Below are positions 3,153 to 29,071 of a DNA stretch of 64,000 bases, one piece after another. Source of the DNA: Promethearchaeia archaeon (GTDB lineage: Archaea > Asgardarchaeota > Lokiarchaeia > Sigyniarchaeales > SOKP01). Both the position numbers and the translations under genes were made by a program. Position 1 is the stretch's first letter. Every line of letters starts with the position of its first letter. The stretch is from assembly GCA_029856145.1 (NCBI GenBank), contig JAHQWK010000011.1:64001-128000 (forward strand), given 5' to 3'. The notes under the pieces are model-generated. The model worked only from the letters and a program-made list of their open reading frames with translations, made no database searches and was not told the DNA's origin.

Positions 3153-4526
3153 TTATAAGTTTTTCTGAATGTTTGAAATTTTTTTTTTCAATTTTTTGAT
3201 TCGAGATTCGTTTCCATTAAGATCCTGGACATCTTCTAGAATTTTTAATCCTTGTTGATAGTAATTAATTGCTTTAATGTAATCCTTTTTTTTCTCAGCT
3301 TTTTCTCCTACTTTTAAAGCATATTCTAGTTCCAATTCTTTAATCTTTTTATCAAGTTCTAAAATCATAAATGATATTCTCCCTACTTCCTCTTTATAAT
3401 CAAAACCTGATGCCAAGTAAAGAGCCATTTCACATTCTTTTTGTGCCTCTTTATAAGCTAATCCTTTTTCGGCAGTTTCAGCTTTTCGAATGAAAGAATT
3501 TAAAGATGATCTAACTTCTTCTTCACTCATATGCTTTGCTCTTTCTTTCAATTCATTTATTGCATCGTTATTAGTAATTATCGAAGAAATTAATTCATTA
3601 CTGGCTATTCTTACTGCTCGTGATTCTTGAAAATTACTAATTGTATCTTCAGCGGTTTCAATTGTAGTAGGGATAATAATTTTTTTTTCTATAAGTTTGT
3701 AGACTTCATAAAGTATCTTATTTGAGTCGATATGTACTATTTTTTGAACTTCATCAATTAAGTTGATAATAAAAAAGAATGCTTTTGAAGCTAACAATGC
3801 CTTTGCAAAATCTATTATTGCCTTTTGAATAGGATTTCTCTGAATTATTTCTAATTCGTTTGGTAATAATGTGTGGGTTAGAATCATGGGAAAAACTAGA
3901 TTAACATTAAATGTATCTATTATGAAATCGATGGTATCTTCGAAATGCATCATCCCTTTTCTTATGTGTGCTCCAATTTTATCTAGATATCTACTTTCAT
4001 AATCACTTAAAAACTCAGTTACAAGAATCTTCAAGCTATCAGAAGCTTTATGGTCCAAAACTAAACAGATTCGAATAAATTGGGCATTTTTAAGTAAAAT
4101 ATTGAATGTTTCGTATTGAAATTCATAAAATTGATGATTATTTCTATGATTTGAATTACCATTTGAAGTATTACTAGATTCTGAAAACGTAATATTTGCT
4201 TGGATAAATCCGGTTAATAATCCAGTATTTACGCCCGCTCCTGAAATCGGATAATCAACCAGAGCTAACCCAGATTCTTTAGCCATTAATAAAACATGTT
4301 TTATGTTCAAAACATCTAAAAATTTCTGCCATATTAGGTCTTGGAACATTTGAATACGTTTTTCTTCAGAATCAATAATCGTGAATTTCAAGTTATGATT
4401 AAGATTTAAACCAAATTTTTCAAGTTGAGCTTTAACACACTCTTTACAGAAATCTGGATATTTCTCACAATTATTTTTATCTAGTCCGCAATCAAATCCA
4501 ACAGGACTAATCTGAAAATAAACCAT
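3153..4526 (-). CDS. Soluble protein: Cys-rich N-terminus, longin/roadblock-like domain, helical/wHTH segment, C-terminal TPR-like repeats
   Basis: N-terminal C-x6-C-x6-CxxC. The segment VLLMAKESGLAL...LLTGFIQANITF...FQYETFNILL...IRICLVL resembles the cytoplasmic domain of 24271/26768. TPR-like ALKVGEKAEKKKDYIKAINYYQQGL. Confidence 0.6.
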   Translation of the reverse strand: MVYFQISPVGFDCGLDKNNCEKYPDFCKECVKAQLEKFGLNLNHNLKFTIIDSEEKRIQMFQDLIWQKFLDVLNIKHVLLMAKESGLALVDYPISGAGVNTGLLTGFIQANITFSESSNTSNGNSNHRNNHQFYEFQYETFNILLKNAQFIRICLVLDHKASDSLKILVTEFLSDYESRYLDKIGAHIRKGMMHFEDTIDFIIDTFNVNLVFPMILTHTLLPNELEIIQRNPIQKAIIDFAKALLASKAFFFIINLIDEVQKIVHIDSNKILYEVYKLIEKKIIIPTTIETAEDTISNFQESRAVRIASNELISSIITNNDAINELKERAKHMSEEEVRSSLNSFIRKAETAEKGLAYKEAQKECEMALYLASGFDYKEEVGRISFMILELDKKIKELELEYALKVGEKAEKKKDYIKAINYYQQGLKILEDVQDLNGNESRIKKLKKKISNIQKNL

Positions 4527-7446: not shown

Positions 7447-8436
7447 TTAAAAAGCTATATTTTGTCCAATTCCTTCTTTTAGGGCTCTATCATATACAAG
7501 TTTTCCAACAGCAACATCCTGAGCACTTATTCCCACAGATTTGAATACAGTAATTTCCGAATCAGAGGTACGTCCTGGTTTATTTCCAGTTATTATTTCA
7601 CCTATAGAAAAAATATCATTCTCAGTTATTATACCTTCATTAATAGGAATAATGTAATCTCCAGCTTCAGCCAAACAAGCTTCTTTTAATCCGGCTGTTA
7701 GTAGAGAAGCTCTTTTAATTATTATAGAATCCAATTCTCGCGCATCTGGTGCATGAGCACCAATAGAAGAGATATGAGTTCCTTCAACTACTTTATTTCC
7801 TGAAAAAAGAGGCGTTGTACTAGTAGTAGCTGCTACAACAATATCAGTATTAGAGAGGAGATCATCTCCTGATTCGACAATTTCAACATCTATTCCTAAT
7901 TCACTCTCAATTTCTTTTTTGAAATCTTTAGCAACATTCTTTTTTAAATCATAAACCTTACATTTTTCTAATTTTTTATCTAATCCCCAATATACTGCAG
8001 ATACTTGTTTTCTGGCTTGAACTCCAGCACTATAAATACCCAAAGTGGTACTATTTTTTCTTGCTATATATTTAACAGAAACCCCTGTAGCAGCACCAGT
8101 TCTCATAGCCGTAATAAGGCTTCCATCCATTATTCCCACAATATCACCAGTATTTATATCTTGTACCATAATTTTTGCTAAAACTGTAGGCATATTATAT
8201 TTTTCAGGATTTTGTTTATAGACAGATACAATTTTAGTAGCAAGAGCATTCATCTTACCTCCAATAATACCAGGCATTATTAATGTTAACCCTAGAGCGG
8301 GGTCTGTAAATGCTATTCTTTGAGGAACTATAGCATTTCCAAGAGTTAATTGTTTGTAGGCTTCTTCTACGTAGTTTAACGCATCGGGCATAGTTAATAG
8401 CTTAGCAACATCTTCCTTAGTTAATAATCTAACCAT
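7447..8436 (-). CDS. Ornithine cyclodeaminase/mu-crystallin family (archaeal alanine dehydrogenase-like)
   Basis: ITAMRTGAA, AGVQA, GTHISSIGA, RELD and ITVFKSVGISAQDVA. Confidence 0.9.
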   Translation of the reverse strand: MVRLLTKEDVAKLLTMPDALNYVEEAYKQLTLGNAIVPQRIAFTDPALGLTLIMPGIIGGKMNALATKIVSVYKQNPEKYNMPTVLAKIMVQDINTGDIVGIMDGSLITAMRTGAATGVSVKYIARKNSTTLGIYSAGVQARKQVSAVYWGLDKKLEKCKVYDLKKNVAKDFKKEIESELGIDVEIVESGDDLLSNTDIVVAATTSTTPLFSGNKVVEGTHISSIGAHAPDARELDSIIIKRASLLTAGLKEACLAEAGDYIIPINEGIITENDIFSIGEIITGNKPGRTSDSEITVFKSVGISAQDVAVGKLVYDRALKEGIGQNIAF

Positions 8437-8558
8437 TTTTATTTGTTCAACTCCAATTTAGTAATTCCTAAGATTTTGTATATAAAACTATAAAATTCAA
8501 ATGAATTAAAATATAATTATATCGTAGTTGAGAAAAATATTGAAAGTTTATTCCCATA

Positions 8559-8936
8559 ATGCCTGAATTTGAAAAAATAATGAAGAATTATGACCCCCCT
8601 GAAATAACTGGCAACTTCTTTGTTTTGAATAAAGATGAAGAGGTTTGGCTCGAAGGCTGGATCCAGATGGAACCGTCTTTAGAAGAATTTACTTCTCTAA
8701 TTCAAGAGGAAATTGAAGATTCATGGGGTTTAGAAAATGCTGAAATGTCAGATTACATAATTTTTCATATTGATCTTGAAGATAAAAACAATCTAAAAGA
8801 AATTAAGGATAATGAATATTATCAATGGGTAAGACAACACGAAGAGATTTTCATTGTATTGTTGCATAAAGAGATTAAATATCGGATAATAGAAAATATC
8901 CCAACTGTTTTTGAATGGTTCATGGGAACAATATAA
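8559..8936 (+). CDS. Hypothetical acidic protein
   Basis: 125-aa ATG ORF, co-oriented with and 15 nt upstream of the methyltransferase. Confidence 0.6.
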   Translation: MPEFEKIMKNYDPPEITGNFFVLNKDEEVWLEGWIQMEPSLEEFTSLIQEEIEDSWGLENAEMSDYIIFHIDLEDKNNLKEIKDNEYYQWVRQHEEIFIVLLHKEIKYRIIENIPTVFEWFMGTI

Positions 8937-8951
8937 ATATGGGTTATAGAT

Positions 8952-9698
8952 TTGAATTTCGTATATATTCTCTTGCTAATAATCGGAATTTTAATAATAT
9001 TAATTCTAATCTTTAGTTTACCTCGAAAGAAGAATTTAAGAAAACCTAGTTTTGAAGGCTTTGATAGTCCTGAGGTTGCAGCAGCATTTGAAAAAATGAC
9101 TAATTTTTTACCTTTTAAGATTCTACGAAGAAGAATATTATCTGAATTAAAAAAATATAATCTTAAAGGAAAATTAGTAGATTTAGGTTGTGGTTCGGGA
9201 AATTTAATCATTCAGATTGCCAATAACTTCCCTAATCTTGATTTAAAAGGAGTTGACATTTCTTCTGATGTATTAGAATTAGCTAAAAAAAGGGTATTAG
9301 AAAATAATTTAAATAAAAAGATAGAATTCAAAATCGGAAGTGCGGCAGATTTTCCTTTTTCAGATAATTCAATCGATTTCATCATAAGTACTCTTTCTCT
9401 TCATCACTGGCAAGAACCTACTAAAGCTTTAAGTGAAATTTTTCGTGTTCTGAAACAAAATGGTATTTTTTTAATTTTTGATTTTCGTAGAGATGCGAGA
9501 AAATTCTTTTATGGTTTATTAAAGTTTGTTACTAAAGTAGTTGTCCCCAAAGTTTTAAAGGAGATTAATGAACCTATAGGATCGTTACAAGCAGGATATA
9601 CTCCTACAGAAATAAGACGTATAATCTCTCAAACTTCTTTTGATAATATAGAGATTGATCTCTACTTAGCTTGGATGTTTATTAAGATGAAAAAATAA
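8952..9698 (+). CDS. Class I SAM-dependent methyltransferase with N-terminal membrane anchor
   Basis: LVDLGCGSG, GVDIS, FPFSDNSIDFIISTLSLHHW and EIFRVLKQNG; hydrophobic N-terminus. Confidence 0.9.
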   Translation: MNFVYILLLIIGILIILILIFSLPRKKNLRKPSFEGFDSPEVAAAFEKMTNFLPFKILRRRILSELKKYNLKGKLVDLGCGSGNLIIQIANNFPNLDLKGVDISSDVLELAKKRVLENNLNKKIEFKIGSAADFPFSDNSIDFIISTLSLHHWQEPTKALSEIFRVLKQNGIFLIFDFRRDARKFFYGLLKFVTKVVVPKVLKEINEPIGSLQAGYTPTEIRRIISQTSFDNIEIDLYLAWMFIKMKK

Positions 9699-9788: not shown

Positions 9789-10322
9789 TTAGCGGGATAA
9801 TTTATACATATATGATACTAATTTAAAAAAAAAGTCTTCCACATTAGTACCTGATTTAGCACTCGTTTCAAAGTATTCACATGCAGCTAAAAATTGTTTA
9901 CAATTCTCAGATTCTTCTTTTTCAATAACTCTATTTTCAGAGTTTAACAAATCCGCCTTATTTCCAACAAGTATACTAGAAAATCCATCTATAACTTTCT
10001 CTATTTCTTCTTTCCAGTTTGTAAGGTTTTCAAACGTTTTTTTATTGGTTAGATCGAAAACATAGACTATTCCTTTTGCTCCCTTATAAAATTCTTGTCT
10101 TACCCATTTAAAATGCTGCTGCCCCGCTAAATCCCATATCTGTAAAGTTATTAGGTTTTGAACGTTAGGAAGTTTGATACGTTTTACAAAGAAGTTAGAA
10201 CCAATAGTAGATGCTGTATTTGGGGTAAATCTTCTTTCTAAATATTGATGAAGCAGTGTAGTTTTACCTACGTTAAAATCACCGACAATACAAACCTTAT
10301 AAAAAGGAAATTTTAAACCCAT
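9789..10322 (-). CDS. Rab-like small GTPase
   Basis: G1 GDFNVGKT, G2 STIG, G3 WDLAGQ, G4 NKAD, G5 TSAK; RabF-like IGSNF, LQIW, FYKGA, YVFDLT. Confidence 0.93.
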   Translation of the reverse strand: MGLKFPFYKVCIVGDFNVGKTTLLHQYLERRFTPNTASTIGSNFFVKRIKLPNVQNLITLQIWDLAGQQHFKWVRQEFYKGAKGIVYVFDLTNKKTFENLTNWKEEIEKVIDGFSSILVGNKADLLNSENRVIEKEESENCKQFLAACEYFETSAKSGTNVEDFFFKLVSYMYKLSR

Positions 10323-21903: not shown

Positions 21904-22353
21904 TTAGATTTCCATTGTTAATCTCCATTCTCTGCCACAACTTCCACACTTATATTTCTTTCCGTACATTCTCGGATAAGCAGATATCATATGTGTCCGA
22001 TCTAATATTTCATGAATAAGAGCTTTACTATTATTTCCGCATATTGGACATTCTCTCCTTGATATTCCTTCTACTATAGGTCCTTTTCCCATTTCAAGTG
22101 GAACTGTATCTTGAGAAAAAACCGAACTAGAAACAATTACTTCTTGTTCCAATCTAGGTATTTTTGTTTCATATTGAACTTCGGTTACTGGTATTTCCTT
22201 AATTGGTTCTCGTGGTCCTAAAAGTATTCTAATCTCCTCTTCTAATTCTACAACTCTCATTCTTAAGCTCTCATTCTCATTTCTTAATTCTTTAATTATA
22301 TTTTCAAATTCAATGAGAGTTGGGTCTTTTTTATTTATATTTTCTTGACTCAT
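21904..22353 (-). CDS. Coiled-coil plus C-terminal C4 zinc-ribbon protein
   Basis: Heptad region ELRNENESLRMRVVELEEEI; CPICGN...CGSCGREW. Confidence 0.75.
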   Translation of the reverse strand: MSQENINKKDPTLIEFENIIKELRNENESLRMRVVELEEEIRILLGPREPIKEIPVTEVQYETKIPRLEQEVIVSSSVFSQDTVPLEMGKGPIVEGISRRECPICGNNSKALIHEILDRTHMISAYPRMYGKKYKCGSCGREWRLTMEI

Positions 22354-22636
22354 CTTCCTATAATTTTATTTTTTAATTAAAAGAAAATTGTAAATGTTCT
22401 CTATCAATATAATAGAGTTAATATTAAAAAGCTTAAGGAATCCGAAATATTACAAAATAATTTGAAGAATGGTTTGAACTTAAATTCGTTGTTTCATAGT
22501 CAATAAAAATCATAAGTATTGCATATTTTGAGGCGTTAATCTTAGATAATAAAAGAGAAGTCAATAAACAAAAAAGATTTTTAAACTTATAATTTATTTA
22601 TTTCTATAAGTTAGACTCTTCTTTTGAGAGAGTGTT

Positions 22637-23482
22637 ATGCAATTATTTAGTATAAGTAATAAAGGAGAATTAATTAAGTTAGATAGATTATTTTTTGAAG
22701 AAAATGATGTATATCTCGTTGATGATGAGGAAAAGAATACAATTTATATTTGGGTAGGATTGGAGGTACCTCAATCAAAAAAAGATATTACCGCTGATAT
22801 CGCAAGAAAGATTGATAAAGATCGTGGTGGATCAGCAAAAATCCTTATCATGAAGCAAAAAAGAGAATACGGATCCTTTTTAGCTATGATGCACAATCTA
22901 GAGAAGGGGCTTATACCAGGTAAAACAATTGAGCGAAGACCAGAATTTGTATTTGAGACGCCCCCAGAGAGAATCAAATCTGTTGGGCTTAATGGAATTC
23001 CAGAAGAGAGAGAAATAAATATTGAAACAGAAATAACACAATGGTTTCAGCAAATTAAAGCTCATCGAAAGATTGAACCCCCAAAAAGACCACAAGAACC
23101 TACTGATACTGTTAAATTCATTAAGTTTGAACGACCTATAGTAAAAATAGAGGTTAAAAGTGAACCTCAGAAAGAAACAACGCCCAAACCACAAATTATT
23201 GAGGAAGAACCAGAAGAAATCCCTCTTAAAATCCAAATTCAAGAAGCAGCATATTATTTTTCTTTAAAAGGGTATAAATACGACGAGTTATGCTGGATTT
23301 TGGCTGAAAAAATTCAGAAGATAAATCTTGATATGCCATCTATTGAAGATATTAAACAAAAGGCTGAACAAGTATTCAATTCAAGCTGTACGTATGATGA
23401 ACTTTGTTGGTTAAATGCAGAAATGGATATCTTAACCAAAAAAAGCTTTCTTGAAAAGAAAAAGAAATCATTTGAATATTAA
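22637..23482 (+). CDS. Gelsolin-domain protein with Pro/Glu linker and C-terminal duplicated YDELCW helical domain (1DGelX-like)
   Basis: ENDVYLVDD...TIYIWVG...KKDITADIARKI...QKREYGSF is a gelsolin-type repeat; the C-terminal AAYY...YDELCW motif occurs twice. Confidence 0.8.
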   Translation: MQLFSISNKGELIKLDRLFFEENDVYLVDDEEKNTIYIWVGLEVPQSKKDITADIARKIDKDRGGSAKILIMKQKREYGSFLAMMHNLEKGLIPGKTIERRPEFVFETPPERIKSVGLNGIPEEREINIETEITQWFQQIKAHRKIEPPKRPQEPTDTVKFIKFERPIVKIEVKSEPQKETTPKPQIIEEEPEEIPLKIQIQEAAYYFSLKGYKYDELCWILAEKIQKINLDMPSIEDIKQKAEQVFNSSCTYDELCWLNAEMDILTKKSFLEKKKKSFEY

Positions 23483-23598
23483 AAATTGGAAAATGAATTC
23501 TTATTCATTTGGCCTAGCTAATTTTAAATTAACCAAGATTTTAAATACTATTTTTGATTTCTTATACAAAGTTCTAACAAAAATAATAGGTAATTTCA

Positions 23599-24186
23599 AT
23601 GGAAAATAGTAGTGAATTAAGTGATGAACAGTTTTGGAAGAAAAAAATAAAGGAACATTGGAAAATATTCGCCGTCATAATTAGTGCTGGAGTAGTTGCA
23701 GCTGTAGGGGCAATTTTAGTATTTTTATGGTTTATAAATATTTCTCCTATTGGTGATTATGGTACCGCATCAATTGATCTGTGGACCTTAGAAATGGTTG
23801 TTTTATTTATTATCTTTAGCATTTTATGGGAGTTATTATTCGTGGGGATACCAGCAGCATTATTTTTTGGTGTAGGAGGGTATATCTGTTGGCGTAGATT
23901 ACCAGCTGAAGAAAAACAAGAGTTTAAAGATAGAGAAAAGAAAAAGACTCATAGAGCTAGGAATGCAGGTGGTGGTGGCGGTGGGGGATTCTTTATGTTT
24001 ATTGCATATTGTATTTATATGGCAGTTCAAGGATTTTACAATGTTCCATTTGGAACTCAACCATATAGTTTTTGGATCTATTCGTGGTTCTTAACGTTTA
24101 TGTGGATTGTAATTGTACTCGGAACCCCTGCGTTAATCATCGTTATTATTGTATACTTTACTGTGTGGCGAAAGAAATCAGAATAA
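23599..24186 (+). CDS. Hypothetical 4-TM membrane protein with poly-Gly loop
   Basis: Four hydrophobic segments; NAGGGGGGGFF. Confidence 0.75.
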   Translation: MENSSELSDEQFWKKKIKEHWKIFAVIISAGVVAAVGAILVFLWFINISPIGDYGTASIDLWTLEMVVLFIIFSILWELLFVGIPAALFFGVGGYICWRRLPAEEKQEFKDREKKKTHRARNAGGGGGGGFFMFIAYCIYMAVQGFYNVPFGTQPYSFWIYSWFLTFMWIVIVLGTPALIIVIIVYFTVWRKKSE

Positions 24187-24270: not shown

Positions 24271-26532
24271 CTAATTTTTTGGTTGGAAGACTTTTTTTTG
24301 TATTAAATTGAGAATTATTTCAGCTTCTTTTGTATAAAAACCCTTTCTTATAGAGAGTAGGTTAGTTACTATGAAATAATCTGTGTTTTTCTTTTTCATT
24401 ATGCTTTTGGCTCTATTCACCATTGATTTTTCGTCAGATTTTAGTTTGACATTTTGTTCGATTATTTGCAATGGGTATATCAATGATGTTTGTAAATGTC
24501 TTTCAAGCAACTCTCTGATCCCTAAGAATGAATTAGTATGTCCAGTGAATTTTTCAAATTGTGCTCTATATTTATTATCAATATCATATGATAACTCTTT
24601 AACTGATTCTAAGAAATCTTGAGAAGGATTTTCTTTCATAATTAGTAAAAGCCTGAAGCTTTTAAATTCTGACATTAAAATTTTAGATTTATGATATTCT
24701 AATTTAATTGTTTGGGATTGAGCATCAGCACCTGTAAGCTCAATTCCAAAAGTCCGAATTGCTTCTAAAAATCCTGTTATTAACGATGCATCAATAGATT
24801 TGCTCGCAAGAATTTGTTCATATACATTTAATCCTGAGTCCTTATGGATAATAATGAAATAGTCTAAGTTTAATACATCCATGTATTTATTGAATATTTT
24901 TTGTCTATGTGCTTCATGCTTCCTTCTAGTACTTTTAACCATTTTATATGTAGTAAAACTAAATACTGAGATAATTGCAATTATTCCAACGATTAAAACT
25001 ATTAGCATTGGATCTAAAGCAAATGGAATAATTATTTCAAATTCTTGAGTAATAACTCCTGCTGCTATTCCATTATACCAAAAGACATAAGCCTTATAAG
25101 TTCCAGCATGAGGATTGCTTGAAAGTTGATAATTAAGCAATATGTCATCTGTTTCGATTGATTCAATCTCATATATAATGTCTTCTTGAGCGGGAAATCC
25201 TAATGAATTAATTAACCTAAAAGTCAAATTACCCGGGTCTATTGGAGCAAGGACAGAAAATAGGATTTCTTGGCCAGGACCAAATTCTGTTGTTGGTACG
25301 TTTAGTGAAAGCATTATATTTGGAGAATTTGCAGTTATCCTCCAATTCGCACCCTCAAGGATAGTGTTGTTTGATATAAAAATAAAATGATTTGTTGTAT
25401 TTATAATAACTTGCGATGATATATCCTCCCACCCTACTCCTAAATCTCTAAATACACTTATGTTATACCAACCTAGAGGATAATTAAATTTGATTGAATA
25501 ATTAAAGAAAAATCTCTGGATATCAGGCTCAATAGTCCAGATATTTGCTAAATTCTCTTGTATTAACACATTTCCTGTTGAAATTAAGAAATTTTGTAAT
25601 TTTATATGATATTTTAAATTAAATAATAGCTCTATTGAACGATTATTGATAATAGGAACATAAAATATATCACTATTAGGAGATATATTTTTATTCAATG
25701 TGATACTTCCATTTTCACTAATTGGATATAAGGAACCATCAATATTCAGAGTCATATTTATTTCTTTAGGACTAAATGATCTATCAACTCTTTGAATTAG
25801 TTTATATAATAAAGGTTCTCCTTTTGTTTCAACATTCCATTTTGAACCATCATATTTAGATGTATGTAAATTTGAATGAACAGAATTAGAGTCATTATAA
25901 TACCAATAATATGCTGTTTTTTCTGCAGGGACTAATTGTGAACCATTTAATGTAAGGTAATACTGTCCCGGCGCCAAAGAAATTTCATTTTCAAAAGTCT
26001 GAAGATACCAATTTGGAATTGTAGAAATATTTATCAAGGTGGAGCCCATAATGTTAGAATTAGGAGTATTAGTAGCACCTTCAAAACCAGTTAATTGAAA
26101 AGATACTGGGATAGTTGGGGTTTGAATACTTCTATAACCTAATATGTAAGCACCAAAGAGAACTGTTGGTTCAGTAATATTCACTTGTACACCCCAACCC
26201 AAAAATGCATTTCCGATTGTTACTTTAGAACTACCATCACTAGAATCTTCAATAGTTTTAATTTCCTTACCTAGCCTAATATCTGTGAAATTCATCTCGA
26301 TATTAGTAATATTCCAGGATGCAGATGCTAGTGGAATGTCAATAGAACTTATATTTTTACTATAGTTAATTCCCTCTGAGAATTCAGTAATTAAAAAATC
26401 TGAACGTGGATTTAAGGTATCGCCATTAGTTTGAGCGTGTGAAAATTCTATAAGACTAGCGATATTTATAAACAGAAAAGAAGATATTATGACTAAAACA
26501 ATTAAATAATTTTGTTTAACAATTTTTCTCAT
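24271..26532 (-). CDS. Type I membrane protein: signal peptide, beta-rich glycosylated ectodomain, TM helix, cytoplasmic longin/roadblock-like plus wHTH-like domain (paralogue 1)
   Basis: Signal ending SHAQ; many NxS/T; TM LIVLIVGIIAIISVFSF; cytoplasmic IIIHKDSGLNVY...LITGFLEAIRTFG...IKLEY. Confidence 0.8.
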   Translation of the reverse strand: MRKIVKQNYLIVLVIISSFLFINIASLIEFSHAQTNGDTLNPRSDFLITEFSEGINYSKNISSIDIPLASASWNITNIEMNFTDIRLGKEIKTIEDSSDGSSKVTIGNAFLGWGVQVNITEPTVLFGAYILGYRSIQTPTIPVSFQLTGFEGATNTPNSNIMGSTLINISTIPNWYLQTFENEISLAPGQYYLTLNGSQLVPAEKTAYYWYYNDSNSVHSNLHTSKYDGSKWNVETKGEPLLYKLIQRVDRSFSPKEINMTLNIDGSLYPISENGSITLNKNISPNSDIFYVPIINNRSIELLFNLKYHIKLQNFLISTGNVLIQENLANIWTIEPDIQRFFFNYSIKFNYPLGWYNISVFRDLGVGWEDISSQVIINTTNHFIFISNNTILEGANWRITANSPNIMLSLNVPTTEFGPGQEILFSVLAPIDPGNLTFRLINSLGFPAQEDIIYEIESIETDDILLNYQLSSNPHAGTYKAYVFWYNGIAAGVITQEFEIIIPFALDPMLIVLIVGIIAIISVFSFTTYKMVKSTRRKHEAHRQKIFNKYMDVLNLDYFIIIHKDSGLNVYEQILASKSIDASLITGFLEAIRTFGIELTGADAQSQTIKLEYHKSKILMSEFKSFRLLLIMKENPSQDFLESVKELSYDIDNKYRAQFEKFTGHTNSFLGIRELLERHLQTSLIYPLQIIEQNVKLKSDEKSMVNRAKSIMKKKNTDYFIVTNLLSIRKGFYTKEAEIILNLIQKKVFQPKN

Positions 26533-26767
26533 ATCTATCCCCTAAAAGATATATTTAATTAATTAAATAACTATTTACTATGTTAATCACTATCTGATTA
26601 TTTAAAGTGTAATTCGAATTTTAAAATGACCAAAACATTTAGAAAAGAATTTTAATATAAGAATGGAACTGATTTATAACAGTAATAAAGATTTAATTTA
26701 AAAAGATTTTAGGTATAAAATTCTCCTATATCCTCAATCATTCAATAAAACAGAAATGTAATACATT

Positions 26768-29071
26768 TTATTCTATGATTTGAAAAATATTTTTATCAAT
26801 CAGATTAAAAATGAGCTCTAAATCTTTAGGGCTACATTCTCTTTCAAGTAATAAAGAGGATAAATAAAAAGAACTCGTATTATTTATTTTCATAAAAGAG
26901 ATTGCCTTATTAATCAATGCTCTTTCATTTGGACTTATTTTAACTTTTTCTAACTCTTCTATTTTTGTTAGCTTTAATGGATAAGTAAGTGAAGTACTAA
27001 GATGGTGTTTAAGCAGTTTGTCTATCGATTTAAAAGGATTAATATTTCCATTAAATTGATCAATATGCTCGCCATAATATTTATAGAGATCATAAGCCAA
27101 GTCTTCAAGTGAAAATAAGAAATTTGAGGATGGATGTTGTTTCATTATTAGAATGAGTCTTAGGTTTACAAATTCGGTCATAATTATAATTGAATCTTTG
27201 TATTCTAGCTTTATAGTTTGTGAACTATCTTCAATTTTGATCAATTCAATTCCAAAAGAATGAATTGCTTGTAAAAATCCCGAAATCATAGCAGCATCAA
27301 TTTCTTTTTCAGTAAATTTTTGCTGATAAAGATTTAAGCCGGACTTTTTATCTGAGACAATAATATAATCTAAATTCAAAACATCCATACATTTATTATA
27401 AAGTTTTTGACTTTCTTCAATTTTTCTAGTCCTATATTTCTTGATTCTTCGATAAGATAATATTCCCGTAGTTGTCCCTACAATTGCAATTATGATACCG
27501 ATAACAATCCAAATTGGATCTATAGTAAAAGGAACCGGAGGAACGTTAACTTCAAAGTCTTGAGATTGAACTCCTCCGTCTGTACTATTATTCCAGTAAA
27601 TTATTATAGTATAAGTACCTTCACGTGAATTTGATGGGATTATATATGAAAAAATAGTGTCTTCTGAAATAACGCCTCTTACTTCTATAGGCTCGTCATA
27701 TCCAAAACCTAATGAATTTATGAAATAAAATGTGAAATTACCTTCTAAACTAGGGGCATTAACAGAGAATTGTAATTCTTGTCCTGGTTCCCATTCCAAT
27801 TCTGGGAGATTTATATTAAAAAATATATTGGGTGAATTTGCATTTATCTTCCATTCAACTCCACCCAGTATGATATCATTTGGAATAATAAGTGTGCTTG
27901 CATTCATATTTATATTGGCAAAAGATGTAATATTTTCCCAAGATGGCCCTGATTTACGGTATAGTGATAAATTAAACCAATTTCTAGGAAAATTAAACTT
28001 TACATGATAAATAGATGAGATTCTATCAATTATTGGGTGTAATGCCCATTGACTATTAGTTTCTTTGATACTTGCAGAACCTATAGTTAAAAACTCATTA
28101 GTAAGACTAATAGAATAATTGTAATTAAAATTTAGGATAATAGATCTATTAATTTTTAGTGGAATCTCAAGAGTGATCTTATTAGAATAGTAAGAGAAAT
28201 TGGTTATTTCTAGAGTCCCTTTCCCTGTAACAGGTCCATTAATTACCTCATAATCCTCTCCATTAACTTCTGCTGTCAAATTTAGATCTTTAGGAAGGTA
28301 AGTTCTATCAACTCTTTGATTCAATTTACAGAGAAAACTTGAATTTATAAGACCAAAACTCCAGGAAGTTACATAAGATGATGTGTGTAAATATGGAATT
28401 TGAGGATCAAATTCATCGTTCTGCCAATAATATTTTGCTTGATCATCTGTAGACAGATTAGTACCATTCATAACTAATGTATAATTTCCAATTGGAAGGC
28501 TAATAGGAGCTGACCCTGACGAAAAATCTTGATAATACCAATCTAAAGTGGTAGATATATTCAAATCTATAGATTTATAAATTGTATTATTAGGACTTAA
28601 ATTTATATTATCAAATCCTTTAAGTTGGAATTTTATTATCTCGTTTGCCTGTGGAGTTTTATATCCCTTAATAAAAACACCAAATAATTCAACAACTTCC
28701 AAAATTTCAATTTGCATACTCAGAGCAAATGTTCTAAATACGGAATTTTTATTCCATACTTGTGCTAAGCCTGTTTCAGTGTCTTCAATACTTTTAATTT
28801 CTCTACCTAAATTTATATTGGAAAAATTAATTTTTATATTTGTTATTGTCCAATTCGGTTCAGGTAACTCAATATTTATTGAACTAACATTATCTTTTAT
28901 TCCTTTAATTTTTGAATATTCAAAAAAACTAAAATTAGAAGAAATTGAAAACAGTTCACCATTACTCTGAGCATGTGAAAGATAAATATCATTACTTGAA
29001 ATTAGAAAGATGCTTACAAAAAGTAACAGTCCAATGATGATTTTATTTTTTTTACCGATGTTTTTAAACAT
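26768..29071 (-). CDS. Type I membrane protein with the same architecture (paralogue 2)
   Basis: Colinear similarity with 24271..26532: SHAQ(S/T)NG, W(T/N)ITNI, LG(R/K)EIK(S/T)IED, QRVDR, W(K/R)I(N/T)ANSPNI, MDVLNLDY, SQTIKLEY. Confidence 0.8.
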   Translation of the reverse strand: MFKNIGKKNKIIIGLLLFVSIFLISSNDIYLSHAQSNGELFSISSNFSFFEYSKIKGIKDNVSSINIELPEPNWTITNIKINFSNINLGREIKSIEDTETGLAQVWNKNSVFRTFALSMQIEILEVVELFGVFIKGYKTPQANEIIKFQLKGFDNINLSPNNTIYKSIDLNISTTLDWYYQDFSSGSAPISLPIGNYTLVMNGTNLSTDDQAKYYWQNDEFDPQIPYLHTSSYVTSWSFGLINSSFLCKLNQRVDRTYLPKDLNLTAEVNGEDYEVINGPVTGKGTLEITNFSYYSNKITLEIPLKINRSIILNFNYNYSISLTNEFLTIGSASIKETNSQWALHPIIDRISSIYHVKFNFPRNWFNLSLYRKSGPSWENITSFANINMNASTLIIPNDIILGGVEWKINANSPNIFFNINLPELEWEPGQELQFSVNAPSLEGNFTFYFINSLGFGYDEPIEVRGVISEDTIFSYIIPSNSREGTYTIIIYWNNSTDGGVQSQDFEVNVPPVPFTIDPIWIVIGIIIAIVGTTTGILSYRRIKKYRTRKIEESQKLYNKCMDVLNLDYIIVSDKKSGLNLYQQKFTEKEIDAAMISGFLQAIHSFGIELIKIEDSSQTIKLEYKDSIIIMTEFVNLRLILIMKQHPSSNFLFSLEDLAYDLYKYYGEHIDQFNGNINPFKSIDKLLKHHLSTSLTYPLKLTKIEELEKVKISPNERALINKAISFMKINNTSSFYLSSLLLERECSPKDLELIFNLIDKNIFQIIE

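Follow-up and report, generated by a model that had tools for sequence, protein, structure and literature searches.

Longin domains are known to work in pairs; Levine et al. assign the dimer interface to alpha1/beta3 and GTPase binding to the face formed by alpha1 (PMC3747258). In Asgard archaea, longins and longin-GTPase fusions have already been published (10.1101/2020.10.19.343400, PMC10933270, PMC4917890), and these sources include longins fused to input (two-component) domains (Liu et al., 10.1101/2020.10.19.343400) and the remark that operons joining a GTPase and a longin are rare in MK-D1 (Tran et al., PMC10933270). Asgard archaea carry approx. 90–110 small GTPases and no eukaryotic lipid-anchoring machinery, and the way in which these GTPases gain access to membranes or receive input from outside is an open question (PMC4917890, PMC10933270). 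Here, we describe two adjacent genes, paralogues A and B, in a stretch of 64,000 nucleotides (the window) of a Promethearchaeia genome of 3.55 Mb labelled G000 (C11:64001-128000; contig JAHQWK010000011.1). Both encode single-pass surface proteins with a cytoplasmic domain that is modelled as a longin, and we propose with moderate confidence that they combine a variable, glycan-binding head with a membrane-anchored longin that serves as a platform for a small GTPase. The features of the two genes are the following (TM, transmembrane; aa, amino acids):

24271..26532, minus strand: paralogue A (P0001) of 753 aa, a type I surface protein with one TM pass and a cytoplasmic longin and winged-helix-like module
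26434..26532, minus strand: signal peptide of A, residues 1–33, with predicted cleavage S-H-A|Q, from hydropathy and the homologue pattern
25786..26271, minus strand: jelly-roll, lectin/CBM-like head of A, residues 88–249, the exchangeable part (VIA structure search and head/tail incongruence)
25018..25320, minus strand: membrane-proximal Ig/macroglobulin-like domain of A, residues 405–505 (VIA search)
24943..25011, minus strand: TM helix of A, approx. residues 508–530, followed by a basic juxtamembrane helix, 531–554 (hydropathy, homologues, structure model)
24475..24870, minus strand: longin domain of A (structure model, Foldseek, VIA, conservation)
24274..24474, minus strand: winged-helix-like tail of A, residues 687–753, conserved in core hydrophobics only, with a 2dfi match
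26768..29071, minus strand: paralogue B (P0002), 767 aa, A-like architecture, separate old subclade, directly upstream of A
27524..28969, minus strand: ectodomain of B, residues 35–516, with 21 sequons and a head that groups with heads borne elsewhere on A-type tails
27449..27517, minus strand: TM helix of B, approx. residues 519–541 (hydropathy, homologues)
26771..27376, minus strand: longin (566–697) and winged-helix-like tail (698–767) of B (alignment to A, clade consensus, Atlas model)

A and B are colinear, with an intergenic gap of 235 nt, and are 40% identical end to end (769 columns, E 7e-171). The original prediction, made from the DNA sequence, of two colinear paralogues of about 760 aa with a signal peptide, an ectodomain and one TM helix was thus borne out. 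In both proteins the N-terminal hydrophobic segment closes in S-H-A|Q, with A/G|Q in most of the homologues shown; the juxtamembrane helix that follows the TM helix has a net charge of +5, and the N-terminal signal, the single TM helix, the positive-inside tail and the outer sequons are those of a type I membrane glycoprotein. A TM helix stands just ahead of the cytoplasmic module in 118 of 121 informative top homologues, 31 of these with another ectodomain. The ectodomains (471 aa in A and 482 aa in B) are all-beta in the structure model (pLDDT 94) and contain 17 and 21 N-x-S/T sequons, respectively, against 7.8 and 8.8 in shuffled sequences (p about 0.001 or less), in agreement with the sequon-rich beta ectodomain that had been anticipated. 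N-glycosylation by AglB has been demonstrated in Loki, yet it is infrequent in MK-D1 (PMC11284389). A and B are probably secreted, N-glycosylated, single-pass surface proteins. No credible Pfam or PDB sequence match was obtained for A, B or the family alignments, and weak matches to PCNA and Wzt were set aside as not credible; a sigma-70 promoter scan is uninformative, the host being an archaeon.

The identity of the cytoplasmic domain comes from its AlphaFold model (pLDDT 86), with the DSSP assignment E26-33, E39-44, H52-64, E77-83, E86-93, E96-102, H108-130 and H142-155. Foldseek returned 16 matches at E <=0.001, every one a longin or a roadblock, led by sedlin (E 1e-4) and AP2 sigma. In an exhaustive VIA search synbindin ranked first (Z 11.4, root mean square deviation (rmsd) 2.9, 118 aligned), followed by Sec22 (Z 10.5), AP2 mu (9.9), VAMP7 (9.8) and the Loki longin 8yqg (9.5); the top longin matches (Z 11.4, 10.5 and 9.9) span 116–123 residues with an rmsd of approx. 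3. Roadblocks scored Z 6.6–8.3 and align with model residues ~20–130 only, whereas longins cover 25–156. Because longins outrank roadblocks in the fold search and the roadblock alignments are shorter, the modelled domain is assigned to the longins; a Roadblock/LC7 identity (MglB, LAMTOR), which implies a permuted order and a single C-terminal helix, was rejected since the model has two C-terminal helices. Of the longin/roadblock-like fold suggested earlier, it is therefore the longin that the structure model and two fold searches support. The best-conserved segment of the longin is alpha1 (0.73 versus 0.41–0.60 elsewhere), and a conserved arginine, R627, opens beta5 after a two-residue beta4-beta5 hairpin; this residue marks a longin plus winged-helix subfamily comprising 7 of the 54 longin domains in the source genome. 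The cytoplasmic motifs previously described as conserved are present in both A and B. The related claim, that conservation of the cytoplasmic module exceeds that of the ectodomain, is true of the longin core (A and B are 52% identical there versus 40% in the ectodomain) but fails for the last 63 residues, in the winged-helix tail (35%).

This tail is a single domain of 67 residues at the protein end, whose topology fits a winged helix. Its best VIA match, obtained with the tail not folded alone, is 2dfi (a middling Z of 7.0, rmsd 2.8, 61 aligned), which we take to be the insert domain of methionine aminopeptidase, with a winged-helix fold; this insert domain is not known to bind DNA. Conservation is confined to core hydrophobics and a few Lys/Glu residues, and the charge varies from -7 to +11 across the family, being 0 in B. 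The would-be recognition helix lacks conserved polar or basic residues, no Pfam helix-turn-helix match is common to 80 family members, and no solved structure matched the longin and the winged helix jointly, a result that excludes no family. The winged-helix-like nature of the tail, also proposed from the sequence, is supported by the structure model and, at a middling score, by the fold searches. The same longin and winged-helix module, with its D/R/P signature, occurs in a soluble protein of 457 aa encoded at 3153-4526 of the window (minus strand), which has an N-terminal Cys cluster and a TPR-like helical tail; a paralogue of this protein is found at G000:C22:76270-77658.

A and B resemble TRAPPC1/C4 (Bet5/Trs23, synbindin), Mon1-Ccz1, BLOC-3 and Intu-Fuzzy in the longin fold, as judged from the synbindin and sedlin matches, and in the conservation of alpha1/beta3; a further likeness to longin-pair platforms is that the receptor genes of a sister clade are accompanied by genes for a small GTPase and another longin. 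However, complexes of the TRAPP or Mon1-Ccz1 kind are soluble and have several longins or extra catalytic subunits, whereas here one longin belongs to a single-pass protein with a 470-aa ectodomain. In SRalpha (SRX longin)-SRbeta and in Ragulator-Rag, a longin or roadblock surface likewise joins a small GTPase to the membrane. The TM anchor of SR is on the GTPase, and in Ragulator a lipidated scaffold provides the anchor; in A and B it is the longin itself that is TM-anchored, with a domain outside. Sec22, VAMP7 and AP sigma/mu are highly similar in fold (Z 10.5 for Sec22 and 9.9 for AP2 mu), but A and B lack a SNARE motif, and in them the longin follows the TM helix, opposite to the order in longin SNAREs. 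The succession of a longin and a winged helix is shared with NPRL2/NPRL3 (GATOR1) and with the Asgard NPRL2-like longin fusions. In the uDENN longins of NPRL2/FLCN, a long loop between beta4 and beta5 bears an arginine finger, and an F..GP motif lies at beta1-beta2; in A, beta1-beta2 reads K-x-S-G-L, beta4-beta5 is a two-residue hairpin and R627 lies elsewhere, and on this comparison an assignment to the GTPase-activating proteins (GAPs) of the NPRL2/FLCN (uDENN) type was rejected. A and B also differ from NPRL2 in having one winged helix rather than two or more (PMC3747258), and the NPRL2 match (Z 7.3) covers the longin only. The fusions of Liu et al. carry two-component domains and not a type I ectodomain, according to the text of that work (10.1101/2020.10.19.343400). 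The Loki Roadblock-Longin 8yqg comes from the same organisms and has the same fold (Z 9.5, rmsd 3.8, 134 aligned); the Asgard longins and roadblocks described by Tran et al. (2024, PMC10933270) are soluble or GTPase-fused, without mention of a transmembrane form. A literature search, with subscription papers and figures outside it, found no description of ectodomain-TM-longin proteins. A and B belong to no named longin complex but probably work in a similar way.

Another characteristic of these proteins is the modularity of their outer part. The jelly-roll head of A matches the phi812 baseplate (9euf, Z 15.9, rmsd 2.4, 153 aligned), Cwp84 with its lectin-like domain (4ci7, Z 12.7) and also PHR/CBM domains in VIA; in the structure model a stalk lies between this head and the membrane-proximal domain, which matches C3 (Z 11.5) and the MG domains of alpha-2-macroglobulin (Z 11.2–11.4), with an rmsd of approx. 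2. Given its lectin/CBM-like fold, the head may bind glycans. Proteins with a longin 84–86% identical to that of B have heads that are mostly just 36–41% identical, while the B head is 67–71% identical to heads on tails only 46–53% identical. In the tail tree, nine proteins picked by longin identity cluster together (89/87, not starred); the head tree rejects these nine as a group (approximately unbiased (AU) test, p 1.15e-5) and clusters the B head (98/96) with heads on A-type tails. Heads have been swapped between paralogues independently of the tails, and the head behaves as a cassette. A variable outer head combined with a constant inner module is what is expected for receptors or adhesins, and this shuffling supports the receptor-like design claimed for A and B.

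The two paralogues fall in two old subclades of the trees. In 18 of 18 informative loci the gene directly upstream of the clade-A gene belongs to clade B, and related subclades are paired in parallel at the same locus in another genome group; clade B also shows fixed, clade-specific changes on the alpha1 face. On the other hand, B is alone at the A/B locus in nine cases and one genome has the arrangement B-B-A; copies per genome range from 0 to 5, with a single copy in several genomes of 97–99% completeness, and no copy was found in several genomes of 100% completeness. A complex prediction for the cytoplasmic parts of A and B gave 0.30 versus a mark of 0.32, without controls, and is not used as evidence either way. 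The heterodimer of the original prediction gains from a gene order that is old and conserved, and a preferred A:B dimer is a tentative possibility; an obligate heterodimer is doubtful because of the copy number, the single-copy genomes and the solitary B loci.

Regarding the GTPase, the open reading frames at 9789, 45791 and 50854 of the window do encode genuine small GTPases, as had been stated, but their supposed link to A and B does not hold. They are located 13.9, 16.7 and 21.8 kb from the receptor genes, in a genome with approx. 92 small GTPases where 44–50% of long genes are equally near to a GTPase and 23% of 64-kb windows hold at least three; the link was rejected since the distance is at chance level. 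The evidence comes instead from a supported sister clade (100/99; 28 tree rows, with some loci counted twice), in which an operon with the order receptor, Arf/Rag-like GTPase and free longin is found in 9 genomes of 3 genera. Its genes are co-directional with gaps of approx. 100 nt or less, the GTPase has 180–190 aa and the free longin 130–150 aa; most of these GTPases start a few residues ahead of the P-loop strand and show no obvious membrane anchor. At locus L100, the receptor tail is encoded at 8001-8693, the GTPase at 8730-9272 and the longin at 9294-9686. In one branch the GTPase was lost and the receptor followed by the longin was retained in approx. 13 genomes, which suggests that the free longin is a closer partner of the receptor than the GTPase. 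The alpha1-beta3-beta4 consensus of clade A is nearly the same as that of this GTPase-linked clade. When the GTPases of the source genome are ranked against the operon GTPase, the best counterpart is G000:C9:26109-26657 (41% identical, 180 bits; the next has 128 bits) and those of the window rank 10th, 14th and 28th; judged by sequence similarity, the former, and not the window three, is the best candidate GTPase for A and B. The notion of a GTPase coupling thus retains indirect support from the sister subfamily and loses its link to the window GTPases. As separate observations, an MglA-like GTPase is encoded upstream on the same strand, 100–190 nt away, in another subclade of the family (L097:5143-8672, L046:5538-9550, L154 and L149), with a gene for a 125-aa helical/PCI-like protein upstream in two of the loci; and in L199 and L216 (G305, G338) a pair of GTPase and free longin genes is tandemly repeated behind the receptor gene.

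The architecture, the fold, the modular heads and the sister-subfamily operon, which also encodes a GTPase and a free longin, are supported directly. In the mechanism that we propose, the exchangeable lectin-like head on its beta stalk would bind an external ligand, most likely a glycan or a surface polymer; the longin held at the membrane may pair via alpha1/beta3 with a second longin, be it the neighbouring paralogue, its own copy or a free longin; the pair would then form a platform on which a soluble Arf/Rag-like small GTPase docks, and ligand binding or clustering could localise or switch the docked GTPase, so that a signal would cross the membrane. The GTPase part of this proposal follows the rule that paired longins, joined via alpha1/beta3, serve as platforms for GTPases (PMC3747258). 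In its favor, a longin of the A/B type is fused N-terminal to six GTPases in the source genome (iterative profile), and the conservation of alpha1 and beta3, together with the free longin as neighbour in the sister clade, bears indirectly on an alpha1/beta3 dimer. Several results weigh against it: many of the top fold matches are SNARE/adaptor longins (Sec22, VAMP7, AP sigma/mu), so a GTPase cannot be deduced from the longin fold; approx. 54 longin-like domains of the source genome share the alpha1 motif; no arginine-finger loop of the FLCN/NPRL2 kind is present; a family-wide GTPase enrichment was rejected (9 of 74 loci within 3 kb versus 16% for any long gene); the source genome has neither the free longin of the operon nor a close orthologue of the operon GTPase (best 41%); the three-gene operon represents one evolutionary event; and the GTPase and longin pair is also found without the receptor. 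A more demanding version, in which the lectin head gates a longin heterodimer that serves as an exchange-factor/GAP platform for the Arf/Rag-like GTPase, seems unlikely.

The alternative that survives best, although we regard it as rather improbable, is an adhesin or lectin whose longin is a GTPase-independent adaptor (AP sigma/mu- or SNARE-like) to the sorting, ESCRT or actin machinery. The SNARE and adaptor longins among the top structural neighbours, the lack of a nearby GTPase at most loci and the conserved presence of a gelsolin-domain gene (22637-23482; within 5 kb of 22 A/B loci) agree with such a role; nevertheless, the operon subfamily retains the GTPase and the free longin across three genera, and the gelsolin linkage may be mere synteny among close relatives. 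A structural coat or adhesion glycoprotein without signal output, in which heads vary by virus escape or substrate range and the inner module oligomerises or anchors, is a less probable explanation. It would account for the heavy sequon load, the lack of a catalytic domain, the exchangeable heads and the dispensability of the gene family in several complete genomes, and one report describes irregular membrane-anchored surface densities on Loki cells, not an S-layer (10.1101/2025.07.22.663070); however, among orthologues the tail is conserved above the ectodomain and there are clade-specific fixed surfaces, which indicate specific partners, and the operon linkage of the sister clade also argues against a purely structural role. 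Finally, a membrane-tethered or protease-released transcription regulator (ToxR/CadC- or Clostridium RsgI-like), with a head that senses a (sulfated) glycan and a winged helix that controls catabolic genes, is the least probable: the winged-helix-like tail, a soluble relative in the source genome with a TrmB-like winged helix-turn-helix after the longin, and the sulfatase genes that 39 of 153 family members have within 5 kb (alkyl-sulfatase genes for 30) favor it, but the putative recognition helix and the variable charge of the tail, its resemblance to an insert domain that is not known to bind DNA, and a search of the source genome in which no homologue of the family-neighbouring sulfatase was found speak against it.

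Other aspects of the neighbourhood deserve mention. The sulfatase genes hint at sulfated ligands. Downstream of A and B, positions 21904-24186 contain a conserved block encoding a coiled-coil/Zn-ribbon protein, the protein with the gelsolin domain and a membrane protein of 195 aa that has a poly-Gly run; in 32 of 153 loci the gene for the latter lies directly next to the family member in convergent orientation, and the linkage of both this gene and the gelsolin-domain gene is possibly plain synteny. A 329-aa open reading frame at 7447-8436 (minus strand) was considered as a receptor remnant and rejected, since it reads as an ornithine cyclodeaminase/alanine dehydrogenase. In the relative G010, a third receptor paralogue (L056:6170-8464) is syntenic to this position, approx. 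1 kb from the counterpart of the GTPase at 9789-10322.

The cytoplasmic module is nearly pan-Asgard: of the 301 genomes of the phylum, 284 contain a match to its profile, and 1286 cluster representatives reach E <=0.001. The ectodomain family is present in 49 of 68 genomes of one Loki family, with one strong match in a neighbouring family and otherwise marginal ones; full-length copies are present in a further family of the same order. One member (L109), on a 4-kb contig of an actinobacterium-labelled metagenome-assembled genome, is nested among Loki sequences and probably mis-binned. The approx. 54 related longin domains detected in the source genome with the iterative profile include 5–6 on single-pass surface proteins, 6 on polytopic membrane proteins and 6 N-terminal to GTPases. 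The six polytopic longin-ended proteins (6–10 TM), among them G000:C9:309812-312091, C3:216873-219321, C22:70024-71325 and C4:2507-4723, include two pairs in tandem, and most are 0.1–7 kb from a small GTPase. The single-pass proteins G000:C21:8873-12187, C24:31885-36546 and C13:100000-103590 (1104–1553 aa) have unrelated ectodomains and the same longin and winged-helix tail; the first is 2.8 kb from a stand-alone Arf-like GTPase.

The suggestion of a proto-eukaryotic signalling system is unsupported, the ectodomain family being nearly confined to one Loki family, and we know of no eukaryotic receptor with the ectodomain-TM-longin architecture. Atlas searches gave longin-like domains in bacterial OmpA-family proteins and in a Thermoplasmatota DUF11 protein (TM scores of approx. 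0.5–0.67, taken as leads only), and therefore caution is required in calling every such fusion eukaryote-like. This architecture was more likely invented within the Asgard archaea than ancestral to a eukaryotic receptor. A longin that is TM-anchored and carries a variable head outside offers a concrete candidate answer to how Asgard GTPases reach membranes or receive input, and in the sister clade the three-gene operon supplies a named cognate GTPase and a partner longin. If the ligand-gated version were true, it would represent a kinase-free pathway from a single-pass receptor to a small GTPase in Asgard archaea, of a kind undescribed in prokaryotes or eukaryotes.

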